64,000 nt of DNA from an uncultured Bacteroides sp. (GCA_964458155.1 CAYWGP010000199.1:11894-75893); one strand, 5' to 3'; shown: positions 7,413-54,158, counted from the first letter of the stretch. Program-made: numbers and translations. Notes: generated by a model from the letters alone, not told the origin.

Positions 7413-8618
7413 TTAGTCTTCCTCAAGAACAAACTGGGCAGGGGGCATTTTGATCAATAAGGGACGCTTGTATTTTCCCACGGTATAGATACCTGCAAGG
7501 ATGGCAATTCCCTGATCAGCAGTCTGGATAAGATCCCGTACCTCCACCCGGTCGTCAAAAACCCTGTTATGTGTGTACAACAGGCTGTCCGATTCAAGGG
7601 CATACTGATAGACCAAAATGGAGTTTTCGTTGGTCTGGGATGCAAACATGGTAAACTTATCCGAATCCGCATTCAGTTGAAGGGCCATTACTGCTGCCCT
7701 GTAGGTGAGTTCATACTGGGGCTCGGCGGGCATATCCTTGATGTTCTCACTGCCTAATACATCAATTTCGGCACCGGCCATGATATAGTTGTTACCTTCA
7801 TAGTATGAGGTGAGGCCAAACAGGCTTCCGGATTTCTGGATCAGAGAACTGATTCCTTCCTCAGTCTGGAAAGAGTAAATATTCCCCATGGCCGATAATG
7901 AGTTCCCGTCAAGAAAAACGGTCCGCAAAGTATAATTATAGAAGCAATTCACAAAGTATCCTGAAGCGGAGCTGTTAGTGTAGGCTCCGATAAAAAAGGG
8001 ATAATCCTGTCCCGTCTTGTTCAGGTGGCGCTGCACCTCATATTCCATATCCGTATTTACATGCAGCCTGTTACTTCGCTGAAGTTGAAAACTACTGTTG
8101 TATTTTGCTATCCAGGAGGAGTGGGTTACAAAATCATAGCCCAGGACCATGAGATTTCCCTGCTCGTCACTAAATGAGTAAAGTGGCATGGTAATATCCA
8201 GTGCGTGGGAAGCAGTTTCTGATCCGTTATCCGGGTCGATTGTGACCGCATAGGCATCAAAGGTCTGATTCATTGCCACGAAGCTCAGGGAACCATTCTG
8301 AAGGATCAGTTTCGAGGTGGGAGTCAACCACTGGTAGTCCATGGTCCAGGTGACCACTCCCGACGAAGATGTGCGAACTATGGAAGTATAGGGATATTCA
8401 ATATCTGCATTTTCATCCTTCACGGCCGAAATTATAATATATCCTCCATCGGGCATTTCCACGACGCTTTCGGGATAGAGGGCCAGCTGTTCATCCGGGT
8501 GATTATAAATTTTCACAAAACCATCTTCAGGCATGATATCCTTCTGGTTTATCTCACATGCTGAGCTTAGCAGCAGCAGGAAGAACAGCAGGGCAATATG
8601 GCTTATTTTAATTCTCAT
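7413..8618 (-). CDS. Hypothetical lipoprotein (possible beta-propeller-like)
   Basis: The track ORF runs to 8786, but that extension overlaps the upstream gene. The internal start MRIKISHIALLFFLLLLSSAC (ATG at 8618) gives a clean lipoprotein signal with a lipobox Cys and sits 4 nt after the upstream stop. I recognise no family. Confidence 0.6.
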   Translation of the reverse strand: MRIKISHIALLFFLLLLSSACEINQKDIMPEDGFVKIYNHPDEQLALYPESVVEMPDGGYIIISAVKDENADIEYPYTSIVRTSSSGVVTWTMDYQWLTPTSKLILQNGSLSFVAMNQTFDAYAVTIDPDNGSETASHALDITMPLYSFSDEQGNLMVLGYDFVTHSSWIAKYNSSFQLQRSNRLHVNTDMEYEVQRHLNKTGQDYPFFIGAYTNSSASGYFVNCFYNYTLRTVFLDGNSLSAMGNIYSFQTEEGISSLIQKSGSLFGLTSYYEGNNYIMAGAEIDVLGSENIKDMPAEPQYELTYRAAVMALQLNADSDKFTMFASQTNENSILVYQYALESDSLLYTHNRVFDDRVEVRDLIQTADQGIAILAGIYTVGKYKRPLLIKMPPAQFVLEED

Positions 8619-8622
8619 AGCA

Positions 8623-9399
8623 TTAATAAAAGCATTCAACATTGCTATAGTGCTTCTGTTTCGAAAGCGAAAAGAGAACGGAAAGATTGATTTGCAGGTC
8701 ATTAAGCATAATGTCATCCTGGGCAAAAGTCTCACCACCGCCGGTCTCAAAGCGATCAGCTTTATTGGTAATATTATTAAGCCCAATATGATAGCCTACA
8801 TTCAGGTCGAGGATCACATACCTGAGGTCAACATAGGTTCCGGCCACAGCACCTGCAGTAAACTTGGAACTTATAAAAGTCTGGTTGGATGCATCAAGTG
8901 AACCCAGCAGATTACTGTAGGCTATTGAAGCACCCGCATATGGACGGAAGCGCTGCAAGTCAAATCTGTACCGGACTTCCAGCGGAACAGCGAAGTAGCG
9001 AAGCAGATAGGGAGTCTCCTGTTCCACCGTCTCGTTGCTGAATACGATCTCATTGAGCTTACTGAAGCGGTAGGTGTAGGTACCTGGTTTCAATGCGACA
9101 ATAAGAAAGTCATTGAACCATTCAATTTGTACAAAATACTGGTTTCCAATATTTTGAAACATGCCTGAATACTCGTTAGTATAGCTGGCCCCACTCAGGT
9201 CCTCATAGATATTATAAGGTTCCAGATCAACAATCTGAGCCATATTGACTCCGCCTCCGAAGCCGATACGGAGCTGGTTTAAAAAGCCTGCCTTCTGACC
9301 ATAAATGGTGCAGCTTAGCATCAGTCCCAGCAGTATAATCAGTAATGATTGCTTGTTTCTCACTTTATCAAAAACAGATTCGGTGCAAAATGGTTGCAC
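8623..9399 (-). CDS. Putative outer-membrane beta-barrel protein
   Basis: 258 aa. It has a hydrophobic signal-like segment (LLIILLGLMLSCTIYGQ) and an alternating amphipathic strand pattern with G/Y/F-rich segments (RIGFGGGVNMAQI, YAGASIAYSN, LNVGYHIGL). The exact start is uncertain (M at 9399 or a downstream GTG). It appears co-transcribed with the lipoprotein gene. Confidence 0.55.
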   Translation of the reverse strand: MQPFCTESVFDKVRNKQSLLIILLGLMLSCTIYGQKAGFLNQLRIGFGGGVNMAQIVDLEPYNIYEDLSGASYTNEYSGMFQNIGNQYFVQIEWFNDFLIVALKPGTYTYRFSKLNEIVFSNETVEQETPYLLRYFAVPLEVRYRFDLQRFRPYAGASIAYSNLLGSLDASNQTFISSKFTAGAVAGTYVDLRYVILDLNVGYHIGLNNITNKADRFETGGGETFAQDDIMLNDLQINLSVLFSLSKQKHYSNVECFY

Positions 9400-16779: not shown

Positions 16780-18324
16780 TTATTTTAACTCCACTTCGCC
16801 AGTCACCTCCTCAGTTTCACCCCTGATTTCCTGATAGATGTCTATCAAAGCTTGCAGTTTACCTGGCTGGCTCTGAGCCAGGTTATTTTGCTCCCCGATA
16901 TCTTCTTTCAGATTATAGAGCTGATAGTCGGGAGCATTTCCAATTTCGATATTGACATTTCCTGAGATGGCAGGTCCCTTGTAGGGAGGAATCATAACCC
17001 AATCTTCCTTTCGCAGAGCGGTCCTGCCTGTAGCCTCCAGAATGAGATCGTCTCTTCCATGAGCTTTCTTTCCCAGGAAAACATCCAGCAGTTCTTCACT
17101 GTCATTGCTTCTGACTTCACTTCCTGCCAGTCTTGCCAGGGAAGAAAAGAGATCCAGCTGCGAAACCAGGGCATCTGAGACTCCAGGATCCATATGACCT
17201 TCCCAGTAGCTGATAAAAGGTACCCGGGTTCCTGCTTCAAAGAGGCTGTATTTACCACCCCTGAGCGGGCCCGATGGGGTATGATTGCCCACCTTTTCAA
17301 CGGCGTCGTCATAATAGCCGTCATTCAGCACCGGACCATTGTCGCTGGAAAAAATGATCAGGGTATTCTCGAGCAGTCCGTTTTCTTCCAGGGTAGCAAT
17401 AAACTCGCCAATGCACCAGTCGGCCTCCACAATCACATCTCCCCTGGGCCCCATACCGGATTTCCCCACAAAGCGTGGATGGGGGGTACGGGGAACATGG
17501 GGCTGCTGAAGTGCATAGTAGAGAAAGAAGGGTTCTTCACGGTGGGCAAGGATGTATTGCTGGGCCCTGACCAGAAAGGTGTCGGCCATATTCTCATCCA
17601 CCCACCTGGCTTCATCTCCGCCCTTCATATATCCTATGCGCGATATGCCGTTCACCACTGTATTATAGTGCCCGTGGTGCCATTTCATTTTCAACAATTC
17701 GGGATTGTCCATCCCCGTGGGTTCGCCTGGAAAATTCTGGCTGTAACTGACCTCAATGGGATCCTCAGGATCGGATCGTACCACCAGGCCGTTCTCAATA
17801 TAAACCGTAGGAACCCTGTCCTGGGTGGCAGCCATGATATAAGCATAGTCAAATCCTACTTCATTGGGTCCGGGTGCAATCTGTGCATTCCAGTCCACAT
17901 GACCATCGCCCAGTCCCAGGTGCCACTTTCCAACGATGCCTGTATGATACCCTCTCTCCTTGAACATCTTAGGAAGGGTCATTTGATCTGTTCGGATAAG
18001 TAAGGGTGCTGTTCCATCCAGGATTTTTGCTTTTTCGTTGCGCCAGGGATATACCCCGGTCAGCAGGGCATAGCGGCTGGGAGAGCAGGTGGCCGATGTG
18101 GAATAGCCATTGGTGAACCTTACTCCACCCATTGCCAGTTTATCAATATTCGGTGTATGAATCTCTGTGGCACCATAGGCACTTACATCTCCATAACCCA
18201 GGTCGTCGGCATAGATAATGACCACATTGGGCATGGAGGGAGCTTCCGTCCTTTTCTTTGAAGAATTACATGAGTTAAAGACGGTAAATGTTGTGAACAG
18301 TAAGGCGATAGTCAGAAGTTTCAT
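16780..18324 (-). CDS. Arylsulfatase (S1 formylglycine-dependent sulfatase)
   Basis: It has a signal peptide, PNVVIIYADDLGYGD, the formylglycine site SATCSPSRYALLTG, and GKWHLG. Confidence 0.9.
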   Translation of the reverse strand: MKLLTIALLFTTFTVFNSCNSSKKRTEAPSMPNVVIIYADDLGYGDVSAYGATEIHTPNIDKLAMGGVRFTNGYSTSATCSPSRYALLTGVYPWRNEKAKILDGTAPLLIRTDQMTLPKMFKERGYHTGIVGKWHLGLGDGHVDWNAQIAPGPNEVGFDYAYIMAATQDRVPTVYIENGLVVRSDPEDPIEVSYSQNFPGEPTGMDNPELLKMKWHHGHYNTVVNGISRIGYMKGGDEARWVDENMADTFLVRAQQYILAHREEPFFLYYALQQPHVPRTPHPRFVGKSGMGPRGDVIVEADWCIGEFIATLEENGLLENTLIIFSSDNGPVLNDGYYDDAVEKVGNHTPSGPLRGGKYSLFEAGTRVPFISYWEGHMDPGVSDALVSQLDLFSSLARLAGSEVRSNDSEELLDVFLGKKAHGRDDLILEATGRTALRKEDWVMIPPYKGPAISGNVNIEIGNAPDYQLYNLKEDIGEQNNLAQSQPGKLQALIDIYQEIRGETEEVTGEVELK

Positions 18325-20093
18325 TTTGAACTTAATTGAAGTATTAATGATTGAAGTGGTTTTATATCGATTCTTGTTTTTGCCCTTCCTTCCTCTATCC
18401 CGAGTTCAAGTGTTTGTTCACTCAACTGGTCGTAAAGGGTGTAAGTTCCATCCTCTAAGCCCCAGGTAGAAATAAGATCTGCAGGAACCTGGAGATCAAA
18501 GCCAAAGGTAGCGTTTGAATCAAAATTTGCAACAATGAGCAGGTGCTCTTCTTCCTTCCAGCGCACGTAGGAGAAAACCCTGTCGTTATACCACCGGGTA
18601 TGCTCCCTGTTGTAGCTGTGGATCTCGCTGTATTCTCCCATCAGTGCCTTACTGTTTTTAGTGAAATTCAGAAGGGTGGAATAAAGGCTATGCAATTGTC
18701 TCTCCTCTTCTGAAAGGGCAGCACCGTCAAATTTTCCATTGTTCATCCAGCGCTGGTGATGCGGAACTCCAATATAATCGTATATGGATGTTCTGGTTGG
18801 AGCGCCAAATCCGGGCTCCTCGGCAGCGGGTTCACCCACATCCTGACCAAAGAAGAGCATGGTGGGGGAAGATCCGATGGTGGCAGAAACTACCATGGCA
18901 GGCATCCCTTTTAGTGGGTCACCTGCAAAATCCGGACTGGCAATACGCTGTTCATCATGGTTCTCCAGGAAGTGAAGCATATGATGCTCAATGTCGGCCA
19001 GATCATTCTGGATCTGCACAATGGCATCAGTACTTCCATGTCCCTGCATAATGCTTTTCAGACTGTCGTAAAGCTGGACCTTATCGTAGAGGTAGTCCAT
19101 TTTTCCCTTGCAGATATAGTCCCTGTAAATTTGAGGCTGATAGATCTCTGCCAGCAGGAAGGCCTCGGGACTGGCCATTTTAATGGCAGAGTTCATATAG
19201 CTCCAGAATTCTACAGGTACCATTTCGGCCATGTCGTAGCGGAAGCCATCTATTCCTAAGTCCAGCCAGTATAAAGCTATATCCCTGAACTTCTTCCAGG
19301 AATCGGGCACCTCCTTATCTTTCCAAAAGTCGTAATGGGCCTGGCAGGATTCATTTTCATAGCCAGCCGGAAGGGTCTCAAAATCGTGTTTGCCATCCGG
19401 ATCCACACCAAAGTTAATCTTGACTGCCTCGTACCAGTCATTCATATCCGGCTGCGGACTCCGGGAACCATTGCCGGTCCATTTGGCCGGATTTTCATTG
19501 AAATGCCCATCGGCCCCGGGGTGATTCTCACCTCCCAGCACCTGGTATCCATCCCTCCATTGGGGCACCCTGAAGGGCTGGCCCGGGATGTAATAAAAGT
19601 TATTATCCTTCAGATACTCCCGGCTTATGTCATCGGATGCTCCAAAATCTGCCACCCCTTCAGGATTGGAAATGGAGTGGTAAACCCGGGCCACATGGTT
19701 GGGAACGATGTCGATGATTACCTTTAAGCCATGCTGGTGGGTACGCCCGATTAGTTCCTGGAACTCTTCCAGCCGCTTTGCCGGGTCCACAGCCAGGTCA
19801 GGATTTACGTTATAATAATCCTTGACGGAGTAGGGAGAACCGGCCCTTCCTTTGACCACATCAGGATCATCGCCGGGAATCCCGTACTGGCTGTAATCGG
19901 TGACCATAGCATGGTGCAGGACCCCGGTGTACCAGATATGGGTTATACCCAGGGCCTTGATGGCCTCAAGTGCCTCGTCGGTGAAGTCATTGAATTTCCC
20001 CACGCCATTTTCCTCAGGGGTTCCCCATACTTTGTTATTTGTTTCAGTATTCCCAAACAGGCGGGTAAACACCTGGTAAACATTGATTTTCAT
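18321..20093 (-). CDS. Alpha-amylase family glycoside hydrolase (GH13)
   Basis: It has the four GH13 conserved regions: DIVPNHVA, GFRYDMAEM, LLAEIY and FLENHDEQR. There is no signal peptide on this ORF as called (see the mini-ORF immediately upstream, in frame). Confidence 0.9.
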   Translation of the reverse strand: MKINVYQVFTRLFGNTETNNKVWGTPEENGVGKFNDFTDEALEAIKALGITHIWYTGVLHHAMVTDYSQYGIPGDDPDVVKGRAGSPYSVKDYYNVNPDLAVDPAKRLEEFQELIGRTHQHGLKVIIDIVPNHVARVYHSISNPEGVADFGASDDISREYLKDNNFYYIPGQPFRVPQWRDGYQVLGGENHPGADGHFNENPAKWTGNGSRSPQPDMNDWYEAVKINFGVDPDGKHDFETLPAGYENESCQAHYDFWKDKEVPDSWKKFRDIALYWLDLGIDGFRYDMAEMVPVEFWSYMNSAIKMASPEAFLLAEIYQPQIYRDYICKGKMDYLYDKVQLYDSLKSIMQGHGSTDAIVQIQNDLADIEHHMLHFLENHDEQRIASPDFAGDPLKGMPAMVVSATIGSSPTMLFFGQDVGEPAAEEPGFGAPTRTSIYDYIGVPHHQRWMNNGKFDGAALSEEERQLHSLYSTLLNFTKNSKALMGEYSEIHSYNREHTRWYNDRVFSYVRWKEEEHLLIVANFDSNATFGFDLQVPADLISTWGLEDGTYTLYDQLSEQTLELGIEEGRAKTRIDIKPLQSLILQLSSK

Positions 20094-20189
20094 CTATTCT
20101 TGTTCTGGTTTATTTTCTACTTCCTGCCGGGGCCCGCATCCACTTAGCAAGAGGACCAGGCTCATACCTGCAATAAGGATCTTTTTCAT
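20094..20189 (-). CDS. 31-aa lipoprotein signal-peptide mini-ORF, in frame with GH13 and separated from it only by TAG
   Basis: This ORF is not in the track because it is under 60 aa. My hand translation is MKKILIAGMSLVLLLSGCGPRQEVENKPEQE*. It has a perfect lipobox (LSGC). Its ATG overlaps the TGA of the upstream membrane-protein gene (ATGA). Its TAG (20096-20094) is immediately followed by the GH13 ATG (20093) in the same frame. Confidence 0.35.
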   Translation of the reverse strand: MKKILIAGMSLVLLLSGCGPRQEVENKPEQE

Positions 20190-20536
20190 CCTGCTTCTTT
20201 TTCAATATGATATCTTTTTCGCAGTGATTTCCCCCTGAATACCAGTCCGGCACATGCTGTCAGTAAAGCAACTGTTAGCAGGATAATAGCCAGCCTTCCC
20301 CAATCCTCTCCAATGGCTTTCCTGACTTCGATGTATCCGAACATGGCTCGTATCCATTCAGCAGCCCCCAGCAGAAGCAGTACCTGGATGCTTCTGGCAA
20401 GCCATGCTTTCCTGATCAGGAGCAGAAATGGGATCAATAGACTCAGAATGACAAGTGGAAAAAGATTTGCCCTTGAAAAATGGGCAGCCAGCAGTCCAAA
20501 AGAGAGTATTACTGGGAGTAATCTAAGAATGTTCAT
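20186..20536 (-). CDS. Hypothetical integral membrane protein
   Basis: 116 aa with 3-4 hydrophobic helices. It starts 2 nt after the IMPase-family stop. Confidence 0.6.
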   Translation of the reverse strand: MNILRLLPVILSFGLLAAHFSRANLFPLVILSLLIPFLLLIRKAWLARSIQVLLLLGAAEWIRAMFGYIEVRKAIGEDWGRLAIILLTVALLTACAGLVFRGKSLRKRYHIEKEAG

Positions 20537-20538
20537 AA

Positions 20539-21342
20539 TTAAAGTGTTGTGCTTATTAAGAGCTCCTTATGCAATCCCGCTCCTGAAGCAAGAATCGTAT
20601 AGTTCTGATCTACTGCCCGGTCCGACAGGTCAAACCTGATTTCCTTCCCTTCAATGTCTGTTACTGTGCCCCCTCCTTCACGGATTAGCAGCCATGGAAC
20701 TCCGATGTCCCAGATTTTTGTGGTCTGATTGAGGGCTGCCCCCAGCCTGCCATCGGCAACATAGCAAAAATCAACCAGGGAATTTGTGGAACGGATGTTC
20801 CTGACTTTTTTTGAGAGCCTTTCCAGGATTCTCATTTCCTTTTCTGTTTTGCCCGGGATATCACTGAAATCAAAGGAGTAGGATACCAGTTGTTCAGAAA
20901 GATTTTCAGAAGTTGTGACGCAGATGGCTTCATCATCCCTGGTGGCTACTCCTCCGGATTCTGCCAGATAGAGCTTTTTATCTACCGGGAGATACATGCC
21001 GCCCAGTAAGGGGGTGTCATGCCGGAAAAGCGCAATGATCACCCCGAACCAGGGCAAACCGGCAGCAAAATTGGAGGTTCCGTCCAGGGGATCCACTACC
21101 CAGGTATATTCCGAATCCCGGTTCAGATAACCGCTTTCCTCGGTAATCACATTAAAAATTTCCGGAGCTTCAGAAAGCACTGACAGAATAGTTTCTTCCG
21201 AAGCCAGGTCCGCTTCTGTTACCACCGAGCTGATGCTCTCCTTGACCCTGGCATCCATGGTTCTGCCCAGAAAGCTCATCAGGGTTTCTCCACCCTTTTT
21301 TAAGGCTGATATCAGAGTCTCTCGGGCTAGCTCGGGAATCAT
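20539..21342 (-). CDS. Inositol monophosphatase family protein
   Basis: It has the IMPase motifs TEESG...WVVDPLDGTSNF and the C-terminal W.D.GA-like motif WDIGVPWLLIREGGG. Confidence 0.85.
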   Translation of the reverse strand: MIPELARETLISALKKGGETLMSFLGRTMDARVKESISSVVTEADLASEETILSVLSEAPEIFNVITEESGYLNRDSEYTWVVDPLDGTSNFAAGLPWFGVIIALFRHDTPLLGGMYLPVDKKLYLAESGGVATRDDEAICVTTSENLSEQLVSYSFDFSDIPGKTEKEMRILERLSKKVRNIRSTNSLVDFCYVADGRLGAALNQTTKIWDIGVPWLLIREGGGTVTDIEGKEIRFDLSDRAVDQNYTILASGAGLHKELLISTTL

Positions 21343-39077: not shown

Positions 39078-42002
39078 TTATTTGAAGTGTACTATTTTTT
39101 TGGAATATGTACCTTCTGAACATTGCATTACACAATAATATACCCCATTCGCTAATTCTGCCCCGGAAATTTGGGTACTATATAAACCGGGCTTGTGTTT
39201 GGCATCTACCAGACAGCTTAAAAGGCGACCATTCGTATCAAATAAGTTAATCACCACATGCTCTTCACGGCTAAGTTCATAATAGATAGTTGTTAAACTG
39301 GTAAACGGATTCGGATAGGCATCATGCATTGTGAATGATAAGGACTCAGGTATTGGAATACCTGAAGGGATGTCAATATCATTTTGTGCTCCGGGTGTTT
39401 TTCTATGCGCTGTATTCTGCCAGAAAATAGACACCCTGTTATCCTGCATTGGATCAGATAGGGAGATTGAATTACCAGATACGGGCCAGGGATAAACAAC
39501 TTTGTACTCAATGTGATCGATCAACTGACTGGAATCGTTATATAAAGATATTTGATCGCCCCTTTTACTTAATCCAAAGCTAAAATCACCGATTGCAGAT
39601 GTTGTATTATATTTTCCTCTGAAGTCTTCAATATCTGCACAAACCACAAGATATTCATGTGAATTCAATTCAATTCCCGAAGGGAAGATAAACGGCTCAT
39701 TTCCATCATCAGTAAGCTGCCAGTTTGATAAGTCGATATTAATTTCTTTAGGGTTATAGAGCTCAATCCAATCATTTGTTTCTGAGTCTGTATAGCAGAT
39801 TTCATTTATAACAACTCTTTCGAAATCCTGCAAAGGTCCAAAGATTGCAGTTAGCGTTTTATTTTCGTTCATGCTACATGCAATTGAAATATCGGATGAT
39901 TCGATGCCTTCCCATCTCAAAAATTCAAAGCCTAAATCGGGAATAGCCGACAAAGTAAGCTCTAGTTCCTCGAAATATTTGCCGCTAAAAGGATAGTCTT
40001 TAATGATTTGGTTGTTTATTTTAACACTACCTCCCTTATTGGGCACAGAGACTATTAGTTCCTTCATGTTCCCACTCAGGTTAAAAAAATGTTTGTAATG
40101 TTCAATTATATGTTCAGCTCTGTTTTCCAGGAAGCTTTTAGCAGTATTCCTGTTTTCTTCTATATACCAGCTGCCACTGGCATCCCAACGATTTTCATGA
40201 TTTCCAATCTCATTAATAATTAAATCAGCCCTTGCATCAACCCATGGCTTAGAATTTTCAGGCTTAAAATTGGTAGCCATTAAATCACAAAGGCTTGCTA
40301 TAAACAGGTTTTCAAATTCCTTATTCTCTAACAAACTCCTTAATATAAAAGTAGACCAGGGAGGGTTTGGCCAGGTTTCTGATCCATCTGGTTCTGTTGC
40401 AATTTCCAGGGTGTTATATGTGGCATCAAATCCATCATCTTCCCAGGCGGCTAGGCCTGCATCAATATCAAAAACAATCCATCGCCATTTTCCTTTTTCT
40501 CCTTTTTCCCGCCAAAACTTCATGTTATTCCCCGGCCAATCAACATTTGCCATAAATATTTCAGCATTCTGATAGGTAGCAAAGTAGGCGATATCTATCA
40601 TTGTTTTGGCAGTTTGGTAATTCGCTTCAAGGCTTAAATCATGATCTTGCAGAAAATGCGTCAACTCAGCATATTTGTCAATATCACCGGCAATAGGCCA
40701 ACCTGGGTGATAAAAGGGTTCATCGGTTTCAAAACCATTGAGAACATCAATGCTGTCCGCATCAATATTAAAATTATCAGCAACATAATGCTCATTGATT
40801 TTTTCCATCATGTTTAGTATTCCCCAGTATTCTCCGTTAATGAATACTATAACCGGCTGAAAAGCCTGTACTGCTAAAATATCCTGAACCAATCCATTGC
40901 CAGTGGCATCGAAAATATTGTAATCCCCATTATCATTTCGCATGATGAACGATTCGAAACTGTCAATATCCTTTTCTTTGAATAATCGAAATTCGAATTT
41001 TCCGTTTCCATATTTTCTTCTGGCGAACAAAGCCAGGGATTGTTGATAGTCATACCCTGTACCTGATTCGTTACCAAATATTTTCATGCCTGCATTTGAT
41101 TCCAGACCCAAAGAATTTTCGGAATCGTAAAACTCAAAATAAACTTGTTTCTCAAGGATTCCGGGATTGAGGTTAAATAATCCGTTTTCGCCAAAAAGCT
41201 CCTCAGGGTCGGCTGAAATAGAAATCATGGGTAGATTCAGATCATCCACATCAGATGCCATAATATAACTTTTTGTGACAATGGGGCCCGGAAGTTTTCC
41301 TTCCTCGAAAATCCGTGCCTTTATTACAATACTTGATGAAACACTTATTGGCGAACTGAATATAGATGAGGATGCCTCAGGCAAGGATCCATCAGTGGTA
41401 TATCTTATACTTGATCCAGATTCCGAACTCAATGAAACAGATGTTCCACTTCCACTTATATAACCTCCTGTTAAAGAGAAAATTGGTTTTTCGCCAATTA
41501 TTCCTGTAATGCCATTATTGCCATTTGCTTCACCAGGTGTTGGTGCATCAAATAAAGTGAAATTTTGAAAATCATTAAAATCACGACCATATGAAATATC
41601 GCCATATAGTTGAATTGCTGAAATACTGTCAATAACAAGGCCTGCTGGATTTGAAAGGAATATGGATTCGCCTTCTGATTTTATCTTAAAATTGGTGTGT
41701 AAATTACCAGGATCAAATCTATTTTTTCCAGAAGCAAATATTAACAAAAATTGCCCTGATTCTATTGAAACCTGAGGGAATATCCATTTATTTAGTTCGT
41801 TAACATCATCAGACAAACTGAATCCTGCTAAGTCCACAGTCTCAGTACCCACATTGACCAATTCAATCCAATCAACGAAATCCCTGTCTTCATCAGCAAC
41901 AGTGCTGAAATTCAAAGACATAATTTCATTTAAAAAAATCTGTGCAAAAGATATTTTAATTGAGATTAGTAGAATGAAAATGATAAGTTGAAACTTCAGC
42001 AT
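39078..42002 (-). CDS. T9SS-secreted CotH kinase-family protein with two lamin-tail domains
   Basis: The N-terminal LTD is LNEIMS...DWIELVN...LAGFSLSDD. A CHB_HEX_C-like segment is present (IRYTTDGSLP). The CotH core is MKIFGNESG...FINGEYWGILNMMEKINEHYV...WRWIVFDIDAGL. The second LTD is VINEICY...DWIELYNP...LSNWQLTDD. The C-terminal sorting domain is AYPNPFTSLTTIYYEL...GVYYCVM. Confidence 0.8.
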   Translation of the reverse strand: MLKFQLIIFILLISIKISFAQIFLNEIMSLNFSTVADEDRDFVDWIELVNVGTETVDLAGFSLSDDVNELNKWIFPQVSIESGQFLLIFASGKNRFDPGNLHTNFKIKSEGESIFLSNPAGLVIDSISAIQLYGDISYGRDFNDFQNFTLFDAPTPGEANGNNGITGIIGEKPIFSLTGGYISGSGTSVSLSSESGSSIRYTTDGSLPEASSSIFSSPISVSSSIVIKARIFEEGKLPGPIVTKSYIMASDVDDLNLPMISISADPEELFGENGLFNLNPGILEKQVYFEFYDSENSLGLESNAGMKIFGNESGTGYDYQQSLALFARRKYGNGKFEFRLFKEKDIDSFESFIMRNDNGDYNIFDATGNGLVQDILAVQAFQPVIVFINGEYWGILNMMEKINEHYVADNFNIDADSIDVLNGFETDEPFYHPGWPIAGDIDKYAELTHFLQDHDLSLEANYQTAKTMIDIAYFATYQNAEIFMANVDWPGNNMKFWREKGEKGKWRWIVFDIDAGLAAWEDDGFDATYNTLEIATEPDGSETWPNPPWSTFILRSLLENKEFENLFIASLCDLMATNFKPENSKPWVDARADLIINEIGNHENRWDASGSWYIEENRNTAKSFLENRAEHIIEHYKHFFNLSGNMKELIVSVPNKGGSVKINNQIIKDYPFSGKYFEELELTLSAIPDLGFEFLRWEGIESSDISIACSMNENKTLTAIFGPLQDFERVVINEICYTDSETNDWIELYNPKEINIDLSNWQLTDDGNEPFIFPSGIELNSHEYLVVCADIEDFRGKYNTTSAIGDFSFGLSKRGDQISLYNDSSQLIDHIEYKVVYPWPVSGNSISLSDPMQDNRVSIFWQNTAHRKTPGAQNDIDIPSGIPIPESLSFTMHDAYPNPFTSLTTIYYELSREEHVVINLFDTNGRLLSCLVDAKHKPGLYSTQISGAELANGVYYCVMQCSEGTYSKKIVHFK

Positions 42003-42017
42003 TTGTGATGCATATAA

Positions 42018-42068
42018 AATGAAAAATCAACTGCCTACTGGCATGAGCTGAGATTTATCAGCGAGTAA
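42018..42068 (+). pseudogene. Orphan 3' gene fragment (16 codons + stop) homologous to the end of ARH-1; copy B of the direct repeat
   Basis: It translates as NEKSTAYWHELRFISE*, against NEKSTAYWHALKFISE* at 38949-38999. The frame is closed by a TAA immediately upstream (42015-42017). Differences are two synonymous, one conservative (K>R) and one A>E. Confidence 0.7.
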
Positions 42069-42083
42069 GCAGGAGTGATCTGC

Positions 42084-44903
42084 TCAAGCCTTTATTTCAA
42101 TATCCAGTGCTTCTGTCGCTTGTCTGTCGATCCAGATAAGCAGTTTATAAGAACCATCCGTATCTCTAACGATGCCCTGTTTGCAATCAACCTGCTTTCC
42201 ATCAATGCTAACCCGTGCCCTTTGTTTTGAGTTCCATTGTTTGAAGATCATGCAGATGTTTTCTACAGGGCTGTCCTCATTCCCAAGTACAGTCATGGAT
42301 ATCTCATCCGCTTCTTTTTCAAAAACATAGGCACGTTGCGCTTTATCGTATTTCCCGGTGCATCCTCTTACTGCACTTAGAAGCGGAGGCTCTAACCACG
42401 AAAGTGCCAGGGGGATCAGCTCCAGGGGAGCCTGCCTGAGCATCCCTTCCAGTAAGATTTTTGACTGGTAAGGCCTGTTCCCAAACTGAGCATCGTAATC
42501 AGGGGGATAGATATGGGACAGGGAGCTGTGACAGGTTCTGTCAGGATAGCTGGCATAGCGTCCATCTGAAGGCATCTGAGATACCGGCCAGTGGTTCCAC
42601 GTAGGGAAAATAGCATATTCGGTTATCTCCCCTCCATAAACATTTGACCATTGGATCTCCTCCACGATGGTTACCGGGTCATATTCGCCTTTATAGTTAA
42701 TATGATGAATATTGGATCCTTCAGGACCTTCAATTCCGTCAGGGGGTAAGGGATTCCAGTCATAGCTATCATATGCTCCGTCTATGCGGACAATGGTAAA
42801 GGTTTCCTCCCGTTCAATGAGATCATGCGGATGCTGGTCGGGTCCGAATATGGCCATGGATTCCTGCCACTCATGGATCCTTTCACCGCTCGTCCATAAA
42901 TGTTCCACCTTGGCGGCTACTCCATCCGGGTAGATATAATAGTACCAGTCGGCCACATCATACCAGCCTGTTTCCTCCACGTAGTTTGCCTTGATTTTCT
43001 TTACATCGACCAGGGGGAACCTGTAATGAACCACCACCCTTGCAGCAGTGTTTTCTATGATTCTTACGTGGTTGTACAGGCATTGCTTATCTGACATCGG
43101 TTCCTGGCATCCTTCGCCTCCCGAGGTGCTCCAGGTCTCGTTAAACTCATTGCTGTACCAGAAGTTGTTCTCATTGACCATCATCGGAATATAGCTTACT
43201 CCTCGCCAGAAAACGAACCTGGAGGGATTATCGTCAAATTCGACAATAACATCCGCATGATCCCCGAATCTCCACATATTATCCCAGCTATCATAGAATT
43301 TGAGATTGGTATAATATCCGCCAAAGGATTTCCTGTTTTCTCCCAGGGGAAGTACCCGTTTATCAAGATCGGCTGTGGCATCAGGTGCATATAAGGCAAA
43401 AGCAGACTGGATTTCATCCTGTGACAGGGCCACATCGTAAATTTTCACTTCATCGATGAGGCCATCCAGGGAATAAGCCCCCGGAAAGGTATTTTCTCTA
43501 ACAGGATCTGTGGGCCTGCGCTCTTTTCCTTTTCCAATCTGAATATCTTTTGAGGATAATTCAATTTCCGCCTTTGCAACCTGTTTTTCATCTGTAAGCC
43601 TGCCATCCACATAGAGCATCATCTTCCCGGATGTCTGGCTGTAGGTTGCCGAAATGTGGTACCAGGTCTTTCTCTCCAGGAAGACATCCGATGTAAGTTC
43701 CTCCCACACCCCTCCGACTCTCAATTTAAAACCCGGATGACCATGACCGTTTATCCCAAGGAAATACCCGGTATCATCCTCCTTCAGGTACTTCACAACA
43801 AATTCAATTTCATCGAAGTCAATTTCCTGCTCAACATCCACATCTCCTTCCTGGTTTTCCGGATCGCCCCCAACAAGTCCAATGGAAAGATCTCCTTCCC
43901 GCTTGGCAAGGTCGGTAATATCATACTCACCTCTGAACAGGCGAACCTCCTCAGGTACATCATCTGCCTGCTGCACGATGGGGCACCAGCTCCAGGGATA
44001 GGCGCCGATGGCCACCCATCCCTCGAGAGTGATCTCAGCTGAAGGTTTCACGGCTTCATCCGAAGGTATCTGAACGGCGGTTTTGTATCCGTCAAATTGT
44101 AAGGAAGTTCCTGAAACTCCCTTTTTCCAGATGGTCTTATCTCCAGGGACGATGGATTCAGCATTAGTTCTGGATTCTTTCGTAAGATCTCCACCGGCTT
44201 CATCAAATTTAAACCATGCCAGGGGCTCACGGATAGACTCTTTTATTATGGGATTTCCTTCAGTAATTTCTGCCTCAGCATTGCTCGTTGCCTCTGTTCT
44301 TTCCGTTTCTACGATCCCTCTTTGTGACAGCATAAATATCTGGGTAATCCTGTTACCCGGATCATTCCAATCATCAATCTTTTCAGTACCGGTTTTAATG
44401 ACGCGCGTGACCATCCCCTCACTGGTCAATGTAAAATATTCATCAACAAACTGGTTTGCCGCAGCCCCGGTATGCGGATTTGTCCCTTCAAAATCAGGAA
44501 GGTACCTCCAGTGGATAGTAGCCTCTGTCTCGGAACTTTCAATAAGGGATACATGTGAATAGGTATTTACCCTGTCCGGCATCATATCGCTCCCATCTCC
44601 CCTGCGGGGAATAATCTCCTCCACGAAGAACTTCTTCCCAGAAGCATTTTCCCAGTACGGAAGGTAGCTTGCCCCTCTCCAAAAAATGAATTTTCCCGTG
44701 CCTGATCCCAGGTCTACCACAATATCTGCGAAATCGCCAGTTCGATCAAACTGCTCCCAGTCTGCACCGCTTAGCAGGCGGGTATGGTAAGCTCCAAAAT
44801 CTCCCTCCTGCACGCTATCCTGGTTTGTACAACTGCTAAGAGCCATTGAAAGCAATGTGATCATTACCAGGCCAACTAATGATATTTCACCCCTGTTTTT
44901 CAT
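42084..44903 (-). CDS. Exported LamG-containing protein of unassigned family, paralog P3 (939 aa, lipoprotein)
   Basis: It has a lipobox (SMALSSC) and an N-terminal module like that of P1 (ADIVVDLGSGTGKFIFWRGASYLP...YSHVSLIES...IHWRY). Other shared motifs are LEGWVAIGAYPW, VIVEFDDNPSRFVFWRG, GCQEPMSDKQ, YYYIYPDG, WQES, and WNHWPVSQMPSDGRYASYPDRTCHSSL. Confidence 0.85.
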   Translation of the reverse strand: MKNRGEISLVGLVMITLLSMALSSCTNQDSVQEGDFGAYHTRLLSGADWEQFDRTGDFADIVVDLGSGTGKFIFWRGASYLPYWENASGKKFFVEEIIPRRGDGSDMMPDRVNTYSHVSLIESSETEATIHWRYLPDFEGTNPHTGAAANQFVDEYFTLTSEGMVTRVIKTGTEKIDDWNDPGNRITQIFMLSQRGIVETERTEATSNAEAEITEGNPIIKESIREPLAWFKFDEAGGDLTKESRTNAESIVPGDKTIWKKGVSGTSLQFDGYKTAVQIPSDEAVKPSAEITLEGWVAIGAYPWSWCPIVQQADDVPEEVRLFRGEYDITDLAKREGDLSIGLVGGDPENQEGDVDVEQEIDFDEIEFVVKYLKEDDTGYFLGINGHGHPGFKLRVGGVWEELTSDVFLERKTWYHISATYSQTSGKMMLYVDGRLTDEKQVAKAEIELSSKDIQIGKGKERRPTDPVRENTFPGAYSLDGLIDEVKIYDVALSQDEIQSAFALYAPDATADLDKRVLPLGENRKSFGGYYTNLKFYDSWDNMWRFGDHADVIVEFDDNPSRFVFWRGVSYIPMMVNENNFWYSNEFNETWSTSGGEGCQEPMSDKQCLYNHVRIIENTAARVVVHYRFPLVDVKKIKANYVEETGWYDVADWYYYIYPDGVAAKVEHLWTSGERIHEWQESMAIFGPDQHPHDLIEREETFTIVRIDGAYDSYDWNPLPPDGIEGPEGSNIHHINYKGEYDPVTIVEEIQWSNVYGGEITEYAIFPTWNHWPVSQMPSDGRYASYPDRTCHSSLSHIYPPDYDAQFGNRPYQSKILLEGMLRQAPLELIPLALSWLEPPLLSAVRGCTGKYDKAQRAYVFEKEADEISMTVLGNEDSPVENICMIFKQWNSKQRARVSIDGKQVDCKQGIVRDTDGSYKLLIWIDRQATEALDIEIKA

Positions 44904-44914
44904 TTCAGACCATT

Positions 44915-47326
44915 TTATAGATTTGCTAATTCTTCCGTGTTAATCTCGATGATACTATCTTCAATCCCATCTGAACTCGCCCTGACCAGAATCTTTCCTG
45001 GATTTTGAGTGGAACTTACAAGCAGAAGGCAAAGGCCATGGAATGCTGATCGTTCACTGGCCTGGTAACTTTCAATACAGGTAGGGTCTCCATTGCCCAC
45101 ACATTTAAGGATACCCTCACCTTCAATGGAAAATTCAACCAGGTTATTTGCATTGGGGCAAATATTTCCATCCGCATCCATAATCTTCACCGTGATAAAT
45201 GCCAGGTCCTGTCCATCGGCATGAATGCTGGTCCTGTCCGCTTCCAGGCCGATTTTTGCTGCCGGTCCGGCTGTCTTTATCTCCTTTTCAGAGAGGACCT
45301 CGCCATCCCTGTTGAATCCCACAGCCCTGATACTGCCGGGCTGGTATACTACATCATCATAGATGTACCGGTAGGCCCCTTCCTGTTTTTGTTTCCGGCC
45401 CTTTGACACCCCATTGACAAAGAGTTCAACTTCGCTACAATTTGAGTAGATATAAACAGGAGTAGGCTCTCCTTCCCGGCCTTCCCAATTCCAGCTTGGC
45501 AGAAGGTGTATCATCGGATCATCCGTCCACTGACTCTGGTAGAGGTAAAAGCGATCCTTTTTAAATCCGCACATATCTACAATTCCAAAATAGGAGCTGT
45601 GTGCTGGAAAGTACCCTTCTTCATAAGGATCGGGTTCACCGTGATAGTCAAATCCCGACCATACAAACTCTCCTGCCATCCACGGTGCTTTCTGAAGTTC
45701 AAACTCCACATCCGGTAAGGCTCCAAATCCGGTATTTACTATGTCGTAAGATGTGATCTGCTTTGATTCGTGCAAATATCCGCTATACACTTCTTTTACC
45801 GGGAAATGATATTCTCCCCTGGTACTGAGTGTGGCACTGGATTCGGTAGATAACAGGGGCAGATTCGGAAATTCTGCGTGCATTTTATCGTAGCGGTCCT
45901 GCCAGTAATTCATGCCAAATACATCAAAACACTTCTCTAACTCTGAATCAAATTTTGTGGTTAAATGAACTCCTGCGTTTACAGGTCGGGTCGGATCCAT
46001 CTCCCTGCAAATATCTGATAACAGCTTTGCATGTTTTTTGCCTTCCTCAGTATCCAGATCAGGAATCTCATTCCCGATACTCCACATAATTATGGATGGA
46101 TGGTTCCTATCCCGCCGAATCAATGCTCTTGTATCTTTTTCCGCCCATTCTTCAAACCAGATATTATAAGCGTTTGGGACCCCGTACTTTGAAACGGACC
46201 ATTCATCAAAGGTTTCGTCTATAACAAGGATACCAAGCTCATCACACAATTCAAGCTGCTCTGGCGATGGCGGGTTATGGGCCGTGCGTATAGCATTTAC
46301 TCCCATCTCCTTCATGATCTCTAACTGACGTTCTGTGGCTCTTTTGTTCACTGCGGCACCCAGAGGTCCCAGGTCATGGTGCAGATTCACCCCTTTCAAT
46401 TTCAAATGTTTCCCGTTCAGGAAAAAGCCCTTGTCAGAATCGAAGTGGAAGTAGCGCACCCCAAATGTTGTTTCATATTCATCCACTACCTTTCCTTCAT
46501 GAAGTACTGAGGAAACGGCCTTGTATAAATAGGGGGAATCAACAGACCATAGTTCTGGGTCCGTGATCTCCAGCTGCTGAACTATTTCTGTTTCTTCTTC
46601 TGCATCAAGCGTTATGTTGTCCTTTGTTTTTTTTGTCAATACATCTCCATTGGAATCTAAAATTACCGTCGACAGCTCCACACCGGCTGAATAGGATGCT
46701 GAATTATTAATCCATGTTTTCACTTCTATTTCTGCATGATCCTCGCTAATATGCGGTGTGGTGATGTAGCTTCCCCAGTGAGCAACATGGATGGGATTTG
46801 TATAGCTAAGCCAGACATTCCTGTAGATGCCAGATCCCGGATACCACCTGGATGAATAATCCTGGTTTTCTACACGAATGGCAATAATATTTTCCCTGTC
46901 CCTTTCTATTTTGTCCGTCAGGTCAATATAAAATGAGGTGTACCCGTAGGGCCAGCCCCCCACATATTCGCCGTTAAGCCATATCTTAGAATTCCTCATG
47001 ATGCCGTCGCATTCAAGCACCAGGTTCTCAGTACCCGGACGCACTTTGAACGATTTACGGTACCATGCAACTCCCGGGTAAGGCAAATATCCTCCTTTGT
47101 AATTCACCTCTTCAGTGAATGGCCCTTCGATGGCCCAGTCATGGGGCAGATCAAGCACTCTCCACTCAGAATCATCGAAGTTGACGTAAGGCGCATTTTC
47201 CATATCACCATGTGAAAACTTCCATTCCGAATTAAAGTTAAGCCGGAGCCTGGTTTGCTCGGCTGTTGAGCTGTCACAAGCGTTAAGCAGAGATAAGATC
47301 AGCGTTAGAAGGAAAATTTTTTTCAT
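44915..47326 (-). CDS. Glycoside hydrolase family 2 (beta-galactosidase/glucuronidase-like)
   Basis: It has a signal peptide, a sugar-binding N-domain (WRVLDLPHDW), the acid/base region RNHPSIIMWSIGNEI and WSGFDYHGEP. Confidence 0.9.
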   Translation of the reverse strand: MKKIFLLTLILSLLNACDSSTAEQTRLRLNFNSEWKFSHGDMENAPYVNFDDSEWRVLDLPHDWAIEGPFTEEVNYKGGYLPYPGVAWYRKSFKVRPGTENLVLECDGIMRNSKIWLNGEYVGGWPYGYTSFYIDLTDKIERDRENIIAIRVENQDYSSRWYPGSGIYRNVWLSYTNPIHVAHWGSYITTPHISEDHAEIEVKTWINNSASYSAGVELSTVILDSNGDVLTKKTKDNITLDAEEETEIVQQLEITDPELWSVDSPYLYKAVSSVLHEGKVVDEYETTFGVRYFHFDSDKGFFLNGKHLKLKGVNLHHDLGPLGAAVNKRATERQLEIMKEMGVNAIRTAHNPPSPEQLELCDELGILVIDETFDEWSVSKYGVPNAYNIWFEEWAEKDTRALIRRDRNHPSIIMWSIGNEIPDLDTEEGKKHAKLLSDICREMDPTRPVNAGVHLTTKFDSELEKCFDVFGMNYWQDRYDKMHAEFPNLPLLSTESSATLSTRGEYHFPVKEVYSGYLHESKQITSYDIVNTGFGALPDVEFELQKAPWMAGEFVWSGFDYHGEPDPYEEGYFPAHSSYFGIVDMCGFKKDRFYLYQSQWTDDPMIHLLPSWNWEGREGEPTPVYIYSNCSEVELFVNGVSKGRKQKQEGAYRYIYDDVVYQPGSIRAVGFNRDGEVLSEKEIKTAGPAAKIGLEADRTSIHADGQDLAFITVKIMDADGNICPNANNLVEFSIEGEGILKCVGNGDPTCIESYQASERSAFHGLCLLLVSSTQNPGKILVRASSDGIEDSIIEINTEELANL

Positions 47327-47361
47327 GTCCAGGATTTTTGCTGTAGGGGGATGGATGCGTC

Positions 47362-49515
47362 TTATTGCTTATCAATAATAAATTCATTCACTTCTTCAGA
47401 ATCTGTCCTGATCCAAATGACCAGGTCAGTGCTTTCAAGGCCGGAACGAAATCCGTACCTGAAGTCTTTTCCCCTTTTCATTCTCTTTCCGTTGACCGTC
47501 AGAGTGATATCGGACACTCCCCAATTGTTGATCACAAAAGCAGGATTATGAAGGGGAGCATCCTGGGAGGCCTCAAGCTCAAATTGCAGTTTTCCCGATT
47601 TTGCCAGATCGATGATATAGGATTTTTCACTCTGATCATAGACTGCAGCTTTAATTAGCGGACTATCATGTGAAATAGCCGGAGGACTGATCCAGTTCCT
47701 TGCCAGTGTAACAAGATCGGCCTTGTCACGGTCTGTTAGTCCCACGAGCATAATTTTTGTGACCGAGTTATCTGTCATTTCCATGGCTTCCCAGTGCCAG
47801 TGACTGAGTGATGAATGTGCGGGGCGATCTGCAAACATGGCAGATCTTCCATCCGTGGGCTTAACAGATACCGGCCAATGGTTCCACCAGGGGAAAACGG
47901 AAACATTCCTTCGAATTTCACCTGCATAGATGTCTGAATAGGGATTATCCATGGGTCTTACTATGGAAAATGGATAGTACCTCGATTTGGTATTTATGAC
48001 TTTAATATTGTGACCTTCCGGCTCCTGGGGAAGAAAGGGAGGGATGTCATGTTCCCATGAATAGGTATGCCCATCGCCTTTCATATTCATAAGTGTCAGT
48101 GCACCATATTCCAGAATATCTTCTGGGGTTTGTCCCGGGCTCAGGACCATGATACTCTCCTGCCACTCGTGTGCTGCCCTTGGTGCATTGGAATACAATA
48201 CATCCTTTCTGATCCCTGTCATGTCCGGATACATGTAATAGGTCTCTTCAACCCAATCGCCCCAGCCTGTAAGTGGATCTGTAAAAGCAAAATTATTCCA
48301 GTTGTCTACCAGGCCATAACGCCAGAGAACAACCACCCTGGCATCATTGCTTTCAATGATTTTTACATAAGAGTAGGTGTTTCGCTTATCTGACATTGGC
48401 TCGCAGCTTCCATGTTCATTCCATCCTTCATCAAAAGCATTATTGAACCATATCCCATTCTCTGTCACAAAATTCGGGATGTAGTTGGTCCCTCTCCAGA
48501 AAACGAATTTGCAGGGCGATTCATCGAATTGAACTACAACGTCTGCATTGTCACCTACATGCCAGGGGGCATCCCAGGCGGGGTAATAGTCGAGGGTAGT
48601 ATTGACCGCACCAAACCTGCCTGGTCCATCCGGACCGCTGGGCAATGTGCGGTCTGGTAATTGCGGAGCAAGATCTGCAATATTCCCGCTGACAATAGAG
48701 GAAAAGTACTTTGAAGATAAAGAAGTATCGTAAATTTTCACTTCATCTATTATTCCATCAAAGAAGGAGTGGTGATCCTGTGTCCCATAGGGCCGCAGGG
48801 TACCGAAAGGCTTAGCTTTTTCCCTGCTTCTGCCAATCAGCACCGACAGATTCGATACAGATTCATCAATATCGATCCCAAGGGCAGGAACAAATTTTCC
48901 CTGAATCTCTTTTGTTCCGACTAACTTGCCATCCAGGTATATGAGCATCCCTTCTTTTTCAGAATAAACGGCAGCCACATGGGTCCATTTATTTAGAGGC
49001 AAAGTTTGAGGGACAACAAGTTCTTCCGTTTGTCCCCTTGTTGCCAACCTGAAGTTCAGCTGTCCAAGCGCATCAATATTAAAGGAGTATCCATTGTGGT
49101 AGCCGATATCAATATCGTGTTTGTTGTCAATTATCGGGCACAAATGAGTTGGATAGGCTCCCAGGGCGATCCAGGCTTCAAGACTAAAATCATTTAATAC
49201 ATGCGGTGCTTTTTCACCATCTATTTCTATAAAGGATGTGTATCCGTCCAATAGAACAGCATTATTGGAAACACCTGCTACACTTTCATAGTATTTACCC
49301 AGTATCTCACTCTTCAATCCATTTACTTCATCAGTAACATAGGCCATCTTTTCTTTGGGAAGGAATGTTTCCCCCCGCTCCATTTTTACCTCATTCCTCT
49401 TGATCTCTATGTCATCAAAACTTATCCATAGAAGAGGTTTCTCATCTACTTGTCCATTCGCGGATTGAAGAAAACAAATAGCAATTCCCAGCACTAAAAT
49501 TATTTGATGTCTCAT
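47362..49515 (-). CDS. Exported LamG-containing protein of unassigned family, paralog P4 (717 aa)
   Basis: It has an SPI-type signal (LQSANGQ), LEAWIALGAYP, VVVQFDESPCKFVFWRG, SCEPMSDKR, YYMYPD, WQES, and WNHWPVSVKPTDGRSAMFADRPAHSSL. It lies immediately downstream of susD. Confidence 0.85.
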   Translation of the reverse strand: MRHQIILVLGIAICFLQSANGQVDEKPLLWISFDDIEIKRNEVKMERGETFLPKEKMAYVTDEVNGLKSEILGKYYESVAGVSNNAVLLDGYTSFIEIDGEKAPHVLNDFSLEAWIALGAYPTHLCPIIDNKHDIDIGYHNGYSFNIDALGQLNFRLATRGQTEELVVPQTLPLNKWTHVAAVYSEKEGMLIYLDGKLVGTKEIQGKFVPALGIDIDESVSNLSVLIGRSREKAKPFGTLRPYGTQDHHSFFDGIIDEVKIYDTSLSSKYFSSIVSGNIADLAPQLPDRTLPSGPDGPGRFGAVNTTLDYYPAWDAPWHVGDNADVVVQFDESPCKFVFWRGTNYIPNFVTENGIWFNNAFDEGWNEHGSCEPMSDKRNTYSYVKIIESNDARVVVLWRYGLVDNWNNFAFTDPLTGWGDWVEETYYMYPDMTGIRKDVLYSNAPRAAHEWQESIMVLSPGQTPEDILEYGALTLMNMKGDGHTYSWEHDIPPFLPQEPEGHNIKVINTKSRYYPFSIVRPMDNPYSDIYAGEIRRNVSVFPWWNHWPVSVKPTDGRSAMFADRPAHSSLSHWHWEAMEMTDNSVTKIMLVGLTDRDKADLVTLARNWISPPAISHDSPLIKAAVYDQSEKSYIIDLAKSGKLQFELEASQDAPLHNPAFVINNWGVSDITLTVNGKRMKRGKDFRYGFRSGLESTDLVIWIRTDSEEVNEFIIDKQ

Positions 49516-49544
49516 CTTGTTCTTATTTAAATATACCTGATCCT

Positions 49545-51050: not shown

Positions 51051-51071
51051 TTTTTAATTTAGTTGCCGGGG

Positions 51072-54000: not shown

Positions 54001-54158
54001 CTATCTGTTATAGTTCCATTCGTTGTACCCTTGACTATTACACTCACACCGGTAAGAGGCAGATTATTCTCATCAAGAACTGTCCCACTAACTGTTCTCT
54101 GGGCATAGGACCCCAGGAAGATACTAATGCCCAGTATCGACAGGAAAAGCTTTTTCAT
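51072..54158 (-). CDS. SusC/RagA family TonB-dependent outer-membrane transporter
   Basis: 1028 aa. It has an N-terminal carboxypeptidase-regulatory-like domain (VSGTVLDENNLPLTGVSVIVKGT), the TonB-box region DQLVVVGYGTQKK, and a terminal aromatic residue (GINLTF). Confidence 0.95.
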   Translation of the reverse strand: MKKLFLSILGISIFLGSYAQRTVSGTVLDENNLPLTGVSVIVKGTTNGTITDSEGSYTITPSSPENDILVFRYVGYQTNELEIQDRTLINISLKRDLVQIDQLVVVGYGTQKKGEITGAVATVDVEQLNNSSAITLTGKLQGLVAGVSVNTTGQPGSIGDIKIRGTSFFGGNNPLYVIDGILAGDSPVLNSNDIESVQILKDASASAIYGNRAANGVIIITTKKGVNGKPKINLAVKTALQEITARIPLTDNYGWARIINAAHDAIGAPRQSLADVDFNPDLNTDWQEEVYSENAFMSDVNLSISGGGDSHNVFFSLNYLYQDGTIEGPDFNRISTRVNSEFAIGKKFTVGQHLTLGYAKTKGLAGSESVEEYSGDIIGPFSAAYEMLPVIPVYDSSQPSGYGIGEFNKAQTWSENPIGVMNLYTNFTEIVNILGDIYLNFEILEGFDYRLSVGLGASFNNFKRYNEAGRLRMSTDHFSGLAQQEAKEYGLFLENRLSYSKTIGKHSFSLMATYTSQSDRGDNIAAVSVGGYDDEVNFWQLSNSTGKVSVGGTEYESAIISILGRMTYNYDNKYFLTAIVRSDGSSKFSSENRWGTFPSVSGGWDISKENFFDLGFIRQLKLRLGYGEVGNASIGDYQYSTIMDRRATGSDYWDAGVNYNLGPTSESVIGATRSEQINSRNISWEELTETNIGLDIEALNGKLAFNGDYYFGTMNDLLAEMPIPSTIGTRWPAFATINAVSMTRQGWEAAVSYRKLSGDFRYSITANLSHTGNEITDLGFGLTDISTDGRTIARIGNQLGKFYLLEYLGIYTQEEIDALPPDFEVAGDPPEVGDAKYRDTNGRDAEGNLTGEPDGKISLDDDRIITGNPIPMLEYSLNIYLAYKIFDLTVFIQGVSGRDVYNTYYAEMTSGEWGHFSNYPAYFDPYIDGAGSDPRPIWDNGHGNNLPSTRFLDNGAYVRLRNVQLGITLPENRVGNFRLYLSGHNLLTLTKYKGLDPEFTGTDVFTPGIDPRGYPAVRTLNFGINLTF

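Follow-up and report, generated by a model that had tools for sequence, protein, structure and literature searches.

In this study, we analysed a window of 64,000 nucleotides (nt) from an uncultured Bacteroidales bacterium, in which a gene of the alpha-amylase family GH13 is directly preceded, on the minus strand, by a small open reading frame (ORF) of 31 codons. We regard it as very likely that a recent GAG-to-TAG mutation separated this mini-ORF, the former signal peptide and linker, from a GH13 that was ancestrally a lipoprotein, and that the enzyme probably still functions, though relocated. The reading is built on direct observation of the mutation, of the homology of the 31 residues to the N-terminus of intact relatives, of the presence of the lesion in independent assemblies and of an intact, constrained GH13 frame; what it says beyond these is inferred.

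Reading of the minus strand and listing of its ORFs bore out the arrangement described in a first-pass annotation. The mini-ORF translates as MKKILIAGMSLVLLLSGC GPRQEVENKPEQE and is closed by TAG at 20096-20094, and the ATG of GH13 follows at once in the same frame. Its own ATG overlaps the TGA of an upstream ORF for a hydrophobic protein of 116 amino acids (aa) in an ATGA (20189-20186). GH13 as encoded in the window is indeed without a signal peptide, its 590-aa ORF starting at the ATG next to the TAG. As criteria for a lipoprotein signal we used a positive n-region, a hydrophobic core of 7-22 residues and the lipobox [LVI][ASTVI][GAS]C. The mini-ORF has the n-region MKK, a 12-residue hydrophobic core (ILIAGMSLVLLL) and the lipobox L-S-G-C, and is thus predicted to encode a signal peptide of the signal peptidase II type. 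The peptide also gives partial matches to the N-termini of several NCBIfam lipoprotein models.

Protein searches with the 590-aa GH13 revealed homologues in uncultured Bacteroidales and Bacteroidota with 73-87% identity. About 85 of the 120 best homologues are approximately 620 aa long and consist of a signal, the lipobox Cys and a polar linker of about 13 aa running unbroken into E-MKINVYQVF; the N-terminus of P0001 (MKRIIIAGMLMALGLSGCGPSQEVESKPEQEEMKINVYQVF) exemplifies this intact form. The length of 620-622 aa is the sum of mini-ORF, stop codon position and GH13 (31 + 1 + 590). The same was found at the DNA level among 80 species representatives of GTDB across Bacteroidota, one genome per species: in 76, from Bacteroidales, Flavobacteriaceae, Lentimicrobium, Marinilabiliales and Cytophagales, the catalytic domain is fused in frame to a lipoprotein signal with a lipobox Cys, two have a lipobox-like Cys, and two (L016, L019) lack the signal altogether. 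The lipobox Cys (C18) is invariant among 43 aligned orthologues. Alignment with the orthologues, proposed earlier as a check, thus shows signal and linker continuous with (E)MKINVYQVF, with GAG at the site of the TAG in the closest ones. Since orthologues carry the fused signal and the gene order around GH13 is conserved (GntP permease, nitrilase-family gene, inositol-monophosphatase (IMPase)-family gene, 116-aa membrane protein, GH13, sulfatase), the mini-ORF is the detached N-terminus of GH13, neither a coincidence nor an independent gene. Coincidence, one of four explanations first offered, is refuted by the homology of the 31 residues and was rejected on the count of 76 in 80 species.

Another of these explanations, a genuine micro-lipoprotein gene under selection, draws on the ideal signal and lipobox, on the translational coupling on both sides and on the fact that the source record calls the mini-ORF as a gene (P0271). 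We consider it highly improbable. As a separate ORF it is confined to this population, whereas in every relative, including the 97.8%-identical protein P0283, the same segment is the N-terminus of GH13; moreover, its mature part is merely a low-complexity linker.

The lesion itself is a single base. In the nearest relatives for which DNA is available the site reads caagaaGAGATGaaa, in the window caagaaTAGATGaaa, a G-to-T change turning Glu into a stop; L004 likewise has caagaaGAGATG where the window has caagaaTAGATG (GAG to TAG). P0283 falls into the same 90% cluster; it is intact, shares 97.8% identity with the window GH13 and has Glu at the position of the TAG (...KPEQEEMKINVYQVF); its N-terminus reads MKRILIAGMSLVLLLSGCGPRQEVENKPEQEEMKINVYQVF, and 30 of the 31 residues of the mini-ORF are identical to it. 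The nonsense mutation must be recent, because so close a relative still has the intact form with Glu.

A single-base difference between GAG and TAG is of the kind that an error could make, and a sequencing or assembly error hiding an ordinary lipoprotein GH13 had been named in one breath with a nonsense mutation. The nonsense mutation is strongly supported by the GAG of the closest relatives and the intact P0283, whereas the error is refuted and its remaining probability is negligible. A degenerate-pattern scan of a metagenome collection (241 million records; Glu-stop-MKIN[VI]YQVFT) returned one contig, L086, which belongs to the same population, shows 99.97% identity to the window and likewise carries the TAG. 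An exact look-up of the 116-aa membrane protein found seven contigs, which represent seven sample accessions (three from JGI, two each from ENA and Logan), and the TAG is present in all seven; the carriers overall are L086 and L093-L099. The look-up contigs thus come from different pipelines, and some differ from the window at 19759 or 22215. These seven contigs fall into three haplotypes, namely the window type, one with 19759 T>C (three contigs) and one with 22215 G>T. In the sampled population the TAG allele is at or close to fixation. When the exact 590-aa protein was looked up in the contig index, no match was obtained, though the protein is present in the cluster table.

The first-pass annotation also considered that read-through of the TAG might yield dual isoforms, cytoplasmic and periplasmic; the exported one would be the full-length lipoprotein and the other the short form. 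In favour of this, the stop lies in frame, the ORF behind it is intact, and basal near-cognate read-through of any stop codon occurs at a low level. Programmed read-through or recoding is, however, very improbable here. Not one of roughly 200 orthologous loci or proteins has a stop here; the position is taken by Glu or another sense codon, and the Glu-stop-MKIN pattern was met in the metagenome scan in this population only. Within the window 17 TAG, 19 TAA and 9 TGA stop codons are used; TAG closes 16 other long ORFs, and its reassignment was rejected for this reason. We know of no pyrrolysine (Pyl) system or TAG reassignment in Bacteroidales. There are no transfer RNA genes within the window, which is uninformative on suppression. 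Hence there is no sign of programmed read-through, and nothing suggests the basal form, which may still occur at a low level.

The GH13 frame downstream is well preserved. The 590-aa ORF matches the Pfam Alpha-amylase model PF00128 with 74.7 bits (cut-off 22), and inspection reveals the four conserved regions DIVPNH (I), DGFRYDMAE (II), LLAEIY (III) and FLENHDE (IV), in which we presume the catalytic Asp, Glu and Asp to lie; all four are invariant in the 43-sequence orthologue alignment. None of the NCBIfam equivalogs scores above its cut-off for this protein, and solved structures give only distant GH13 matches (best E 1e-14), from which no substrate specificity could be read. An AlphaFold2 model of P0001 has a mean pLDDT (predicted local distance difference test) of 64, too poor to use; it would place the junction Met in coil, four residues before the first strand. 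The 590-codon frame of the window is uninterrupted and 87-88% identical to intact orthologues. Its ratio of non-synonymous to synonymous substitution rates (dN/dS) is 0.074 against intact L006 and 0.102 against intact L004, while pairs of intact genes range from 0.06 to 0.16. As the mutation is young, this low dN/dS mostly reflects history before the mutation and is no proof of present function.

How the enzyme may be made from the broken gene can be proposed from the layout. Adjacent or overlapping stop-start pairs are the classical arrangement for coupled translation, and initiation independent of a Shine-Dalgarno sequence in an A-rich context is typical of Bacteroidota. Ribosomes coming from the 116-aa membrane-protein gene would couple into the signal-peptide ORF through the ATGA and terminate at the TAG. 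They would then restart at the abutting ATG, unless initiation took place there directly in its A-rich context lacking a Shine-Dalgarno sequence. The product would be a 590-aa enzyme with no export signal and hence cytoplasmic. Translation would run on into the sulfatase gene through the second ATGA overlap, so that no polarity would arise. The 31-aa product would be processed to a lipopeptide of 14 residues, which would be a by-product and not that of a conserved gene.

Several points weigh against the favoured reading. The seven accessions may in part share reads or a study, so that independent observations would be fewer than seven, with at least three haplotypes nevertheless. The mini-ORF is taken for a signal peptide by lipobox inspection and homology. 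Only 2.2% amino-acid divergence separates the window GH13 from an intact relative, there is no second lesion in the signal region, and dN/dS cannot prove function at present. Use of the ATG behind the TAG, as well as activity and usefulness of the enzyme in the cytoplasm, are inferred. A rival reading is a gene on its way to a pseudogene, having lost export and yielding a cytoplasmic enzyme that lacks substrate or is poorly translated, its frame intact because the mutation is young. The recent date of the mutation fits this, with P0283 97.8% identical and intact, the lesion in the signal region single, and selection after the mutation not resolved by dN/dS; in addition, the operon partner sulfatase remains an exported lipoprotein. 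Still, we consider this outcome unlikely. Lineages with older losses (L002, L016, L019, L001, L090, L091, L092) retain a full-length GH13 at dN/dS 0.05-0.13, the wider family is mostly signal-less, the stop adjoins an ATG conserved family-wide, and the TAG allele is common to three haplotypes. The signal-less form is normal in the wider family and was reached repeatedly by relatives; therefore we favour an enzyme that is probably functional in its new location.

Among close relatives the signal has disappeared independently through no fewer than ten distinct lesions, each leaving GH13 intact. A clean deletion in L001 makes the stop of the membrane-protein gene overlap the ATG of MKIN; L092 has a clean deletion, too, with a GTGA overlap and a GTG start, and P0078 shows the same overlap as judged from gene coordinates only. 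In L002 and L003, from two samples, a TGY-to-TGA change just after the lipobox Cys is combined with a 1-nt deletion in an A-run. L087 has an internal deletion of about 75 nt. Deletions in L090 and L091 left spacers of 12 nt and 10 nt, respectively, and part of the linker survives in L091. In P0027 an in-frame deletion removed hydrophobic core and Cys, while the species representatives L016 and L019 have neither signal nor remnant. In a neighbour-joining tree the signal-less forms are scattered among intact ones. More distant family members (35-48% identity) are mostly without signal and start with M-x(2-10)-[VI]IYQL, which is the architecture of the 590-aa ORF of the window. Two distant members have extended proteins: P0121 (1448 aa) with a long N-terminal part resembling a GH31-type glycosidase, and P0122 (905 aa) with a lipoprotein signal and a C-terminal esterase-like extension. 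Slippage is a possible mechanism of the clean deletions. The signal start and the internal start in the family share 5-8 nt (ATGAAR) and lie 93-99 nt apart, and the deletions of L001 and L092 match the product expected of slippage between these two repeats. Such a deletion would automatically preserve the ATGA or GTGA overlap with the upstream gene.

Protein N-termini on their own proved a partly misleading basis for counting signal-less homologues, and such counts were rejected. Nine short forms were checked at the level of DNA or coordinates, and two of them (L088/P0049 and L089/P0063) are actually intact. These loci encode a perfect in-frame lipoprotein signal (L088, 1402-1500; L089, about 959-1057), and yet their gene calls begin at the internal ATG (588 and 591 aa, respectively).

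The internal start is itself a conserved feature. For the 78 species representatives with a lipobox Cys (76 plus the two with a lipobox-like one), we examined codons -15 to -4, counted back from the Tyr in YQVF; related species in this count are not independent observations. An in-frame ATG at the junction of linker and domain occurs in 61 of the 78 species and a GTG in 10 more (71/78 in all). Given that Met makes up 2.2% of the gene body, a junction ATG would be expected in about 23%, and the remaining linker contains 0.9% Met. The position of the start moves between clades (MKIN-, MKKKE-, MNQNH-, MTxxELKKKE-). In a clade without the Met, the junction Val is encoded by GTG in 11 of 11 loci, with varying neighbouring codons, although GTG accounts for one third of Val codons in the gene body. 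As a control, the sulfatase lipoprotein next door in the same genomes has a junction Met in 1 of 15 loci. In the sulfatase of the window a Met, probably a trivial substitution, does stand just before the domain start (residues 28-35, APSMPNVV); 14 orthologues carry L, R, P or Q at that site. The sequence before the internal start is rich in A (51%); the corresponding values are 47% ahead of the true start and 31% within the gene body. We did not use this as evidence because the Lys/Glu/Asn/Gln-rich linker explains the 51% A equally well as a Bacteroidota initiation region would.

Judged by codon conservation, the junction pattern looks like selection for a start codon at this place. The junction start may serve beside the signal start, giving two proteoforms, or it may be kept because lineages toggle between the exported and the cytoplasmic state. 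We tentatively raise the possibility, with rather less than even confidence, that the family maintains a working internal start, that intact genes make an exported lipoprotein together with a cytoplasmic enzyme, and that the window carries an allele for the short form only. If so, the signal would have been lost repeatedly because the short form already works, by a nonsense mutation here and by slippage between RTGAA starts elsewhere. The dual isoforms proposed at first would then hold in part: not by the read-through route, but possibly for the family by way of the conserved internal start, with only the short form remaining in the window.

The features of the locus are compiled in Table 1.

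Table 1. The GH13 locus and its neighbours (positions counted from the first letter of the window)
Feature	Position	Strand	Basis
Detached lipoprotein signal peptide and linker of GH13, 31-codon ORF, MKKILIAGMSLVLLLSGCGPRQEVENKPEQE, then stop	20094-20189	-	Homology to the N-terminus of intact orthologues
TAG nonsense codon; GAG (Glu) in the closest intact relatives	20094-20096	-	Single G-to-T change
ATG right behind the TAG, same frame; start of the GH13 ORF, matches the conserved junction ATG/GTG of the family	20091-20093	-	
GH13 (alpha-amylase family) gene, 590 aa, intact, without signal peptide as encoded	18321-20093	-	Pfam PF00128
Hydrophobic (membrane) protein gene, 116 aa, conserved	20186-20536	-	Synteny with relatives
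Sulfatase gene, product a lipoprotein with a signal of its own; its ATG runs into the GH13 stop (ATGA, overlap of 4 nt)	16780-18324	-	
IMPase-family gene, first of the conserved block	20539-21342	-	Synteny conserved
Direct repeat GATGAAAA, 8 nt, copy 1, at the signal-peptide start	20183-20190	-	
Direct repeat GATGAAAA, copy 2, at the internal start, 96 nt from copy 1	20087-20094	-	

The sulfatase is exported, as the first-pass annotation had it, and is a lipoprotein; its gene does not lie 4 nt downstream of GH13 but overlaps its stop. The 116-aa protein has about four hydrophobic segments and matched no Pfam or NCBIfam family. Throughout the Bacteroidales clade its gene adjoins GH13 upstream and is translationally coupled to it (also in L001, L002, L004, L088, L091 and L092). 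The operon is being remodelled in some relatives: in L002, a YdjC-family gene (1928-2536) is inserted between the genes for the IMPase and the membrane protein, and downstream a hybrid two-component regulator has taken the place of the sulfatase.

Elsewhere in the window, a cluster of the polysaccharide-utilisation type lies on the minus strand (39078-54158), with a SusC-like TonB receptor (51072-54158), a SusD-like protein (49545-51050), two Laminin_G_3 proteins and a GH2. Also part of it (39078-42002) is a CotH/lamin-tail-domain protein of 974 aa that carries a C-terminal sorting domain for type IX secretion. At 7413-9399, also on the minus strand, two ORFs in different frames (7413-8786, TTG start at 8786; 8623-9399, GTG start at 9399) overlap by about 160 nt. 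A second broken gene at this place was rejected as unsupported: the two ORFs share no family, a weak outer-membrane beta-barrel match being found in the upstream one only. The overlap is probably due to an over-extended ORF start rather than a frameshift.

For annotation, GH13 of the window should be described as a lipoprotein gene that a nonsense codon has broken and whose product is likely signal-less, and not as a native cytoplasmic amylase behind a small lipoprotein gene. The predicted set of surface glycan-degrading enzymes of this organism changes accordingly. Gene calls at the internal ATG, as in L088 and L089, inflate the number of signal-less homologues in databases, and a check at the DNA level is needed. 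The family can serve as a compact natural experiment on the relocation of an enzyme: the export signal was lost independently many times, a mechanism for the deletions is plausible, and the start at the junction is conserved.

Loss of a signal peptide among orthologues has been described before, and the window is a new example of it. In Enterobacterales such losses occur often, are recent at the level of species, and in most cases remove the entire signal by deletion (Hönigschmid et al. 2018, Genome Biol Evol, PMC5952966). The deletions in L001, L087, L090, L091 and L092 resemble them. In contrast to those events, which were described at the protein level, the window has a nonsense codon with the signal region fully present, and the family consists of lipoprotein glycoside hydrolases of Bacteroidota whose junction start codon is conserved. 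Among bacterial N-terminal proteoforms, those from in-frame internal starts that change where a protein resides form an established class (review PMC13515050). The likeness is an ATG or GTG conserved exactly at the junction of signal-linker and domain, from which a shorter product could lack the targeting sequence. The family differs in that its two products are a prediction from sequence, and in the window the long form is abolished, leaving at most one proteoform. In the literature searched we found no description of a dual-start design for this Bacteroidota GH13 family; its mechanism would be of an already known type. As in operons with termination-reinitiation at ATGA or TAGATG, three successive junctions are seen here (20186-20189, 20091-20096, 18321-18324), but the middle one arose by mutation inside a gene and not as an intergenic junction. 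The GH13 type I pullulanase gene pulA of Lactobacillus crispatus offers a parallel: intact-signal alleles are reported necessary for robust growth on glycogen (bioRxiv 10.1101/2022.03.29.486257), and natural variants lose the export signal of a GH13 while the catalytic part remains. The pullulanase belongs to another phylum and enzyme subfamily and is a secreted enzyme anchored in the S-layer, whereas the enzyme studied here is ancestrally a lipoprotein. Loss of the signal is regarded there as loss of function; here the signal-less state is recurrent among relatives and the norm in the wider family.

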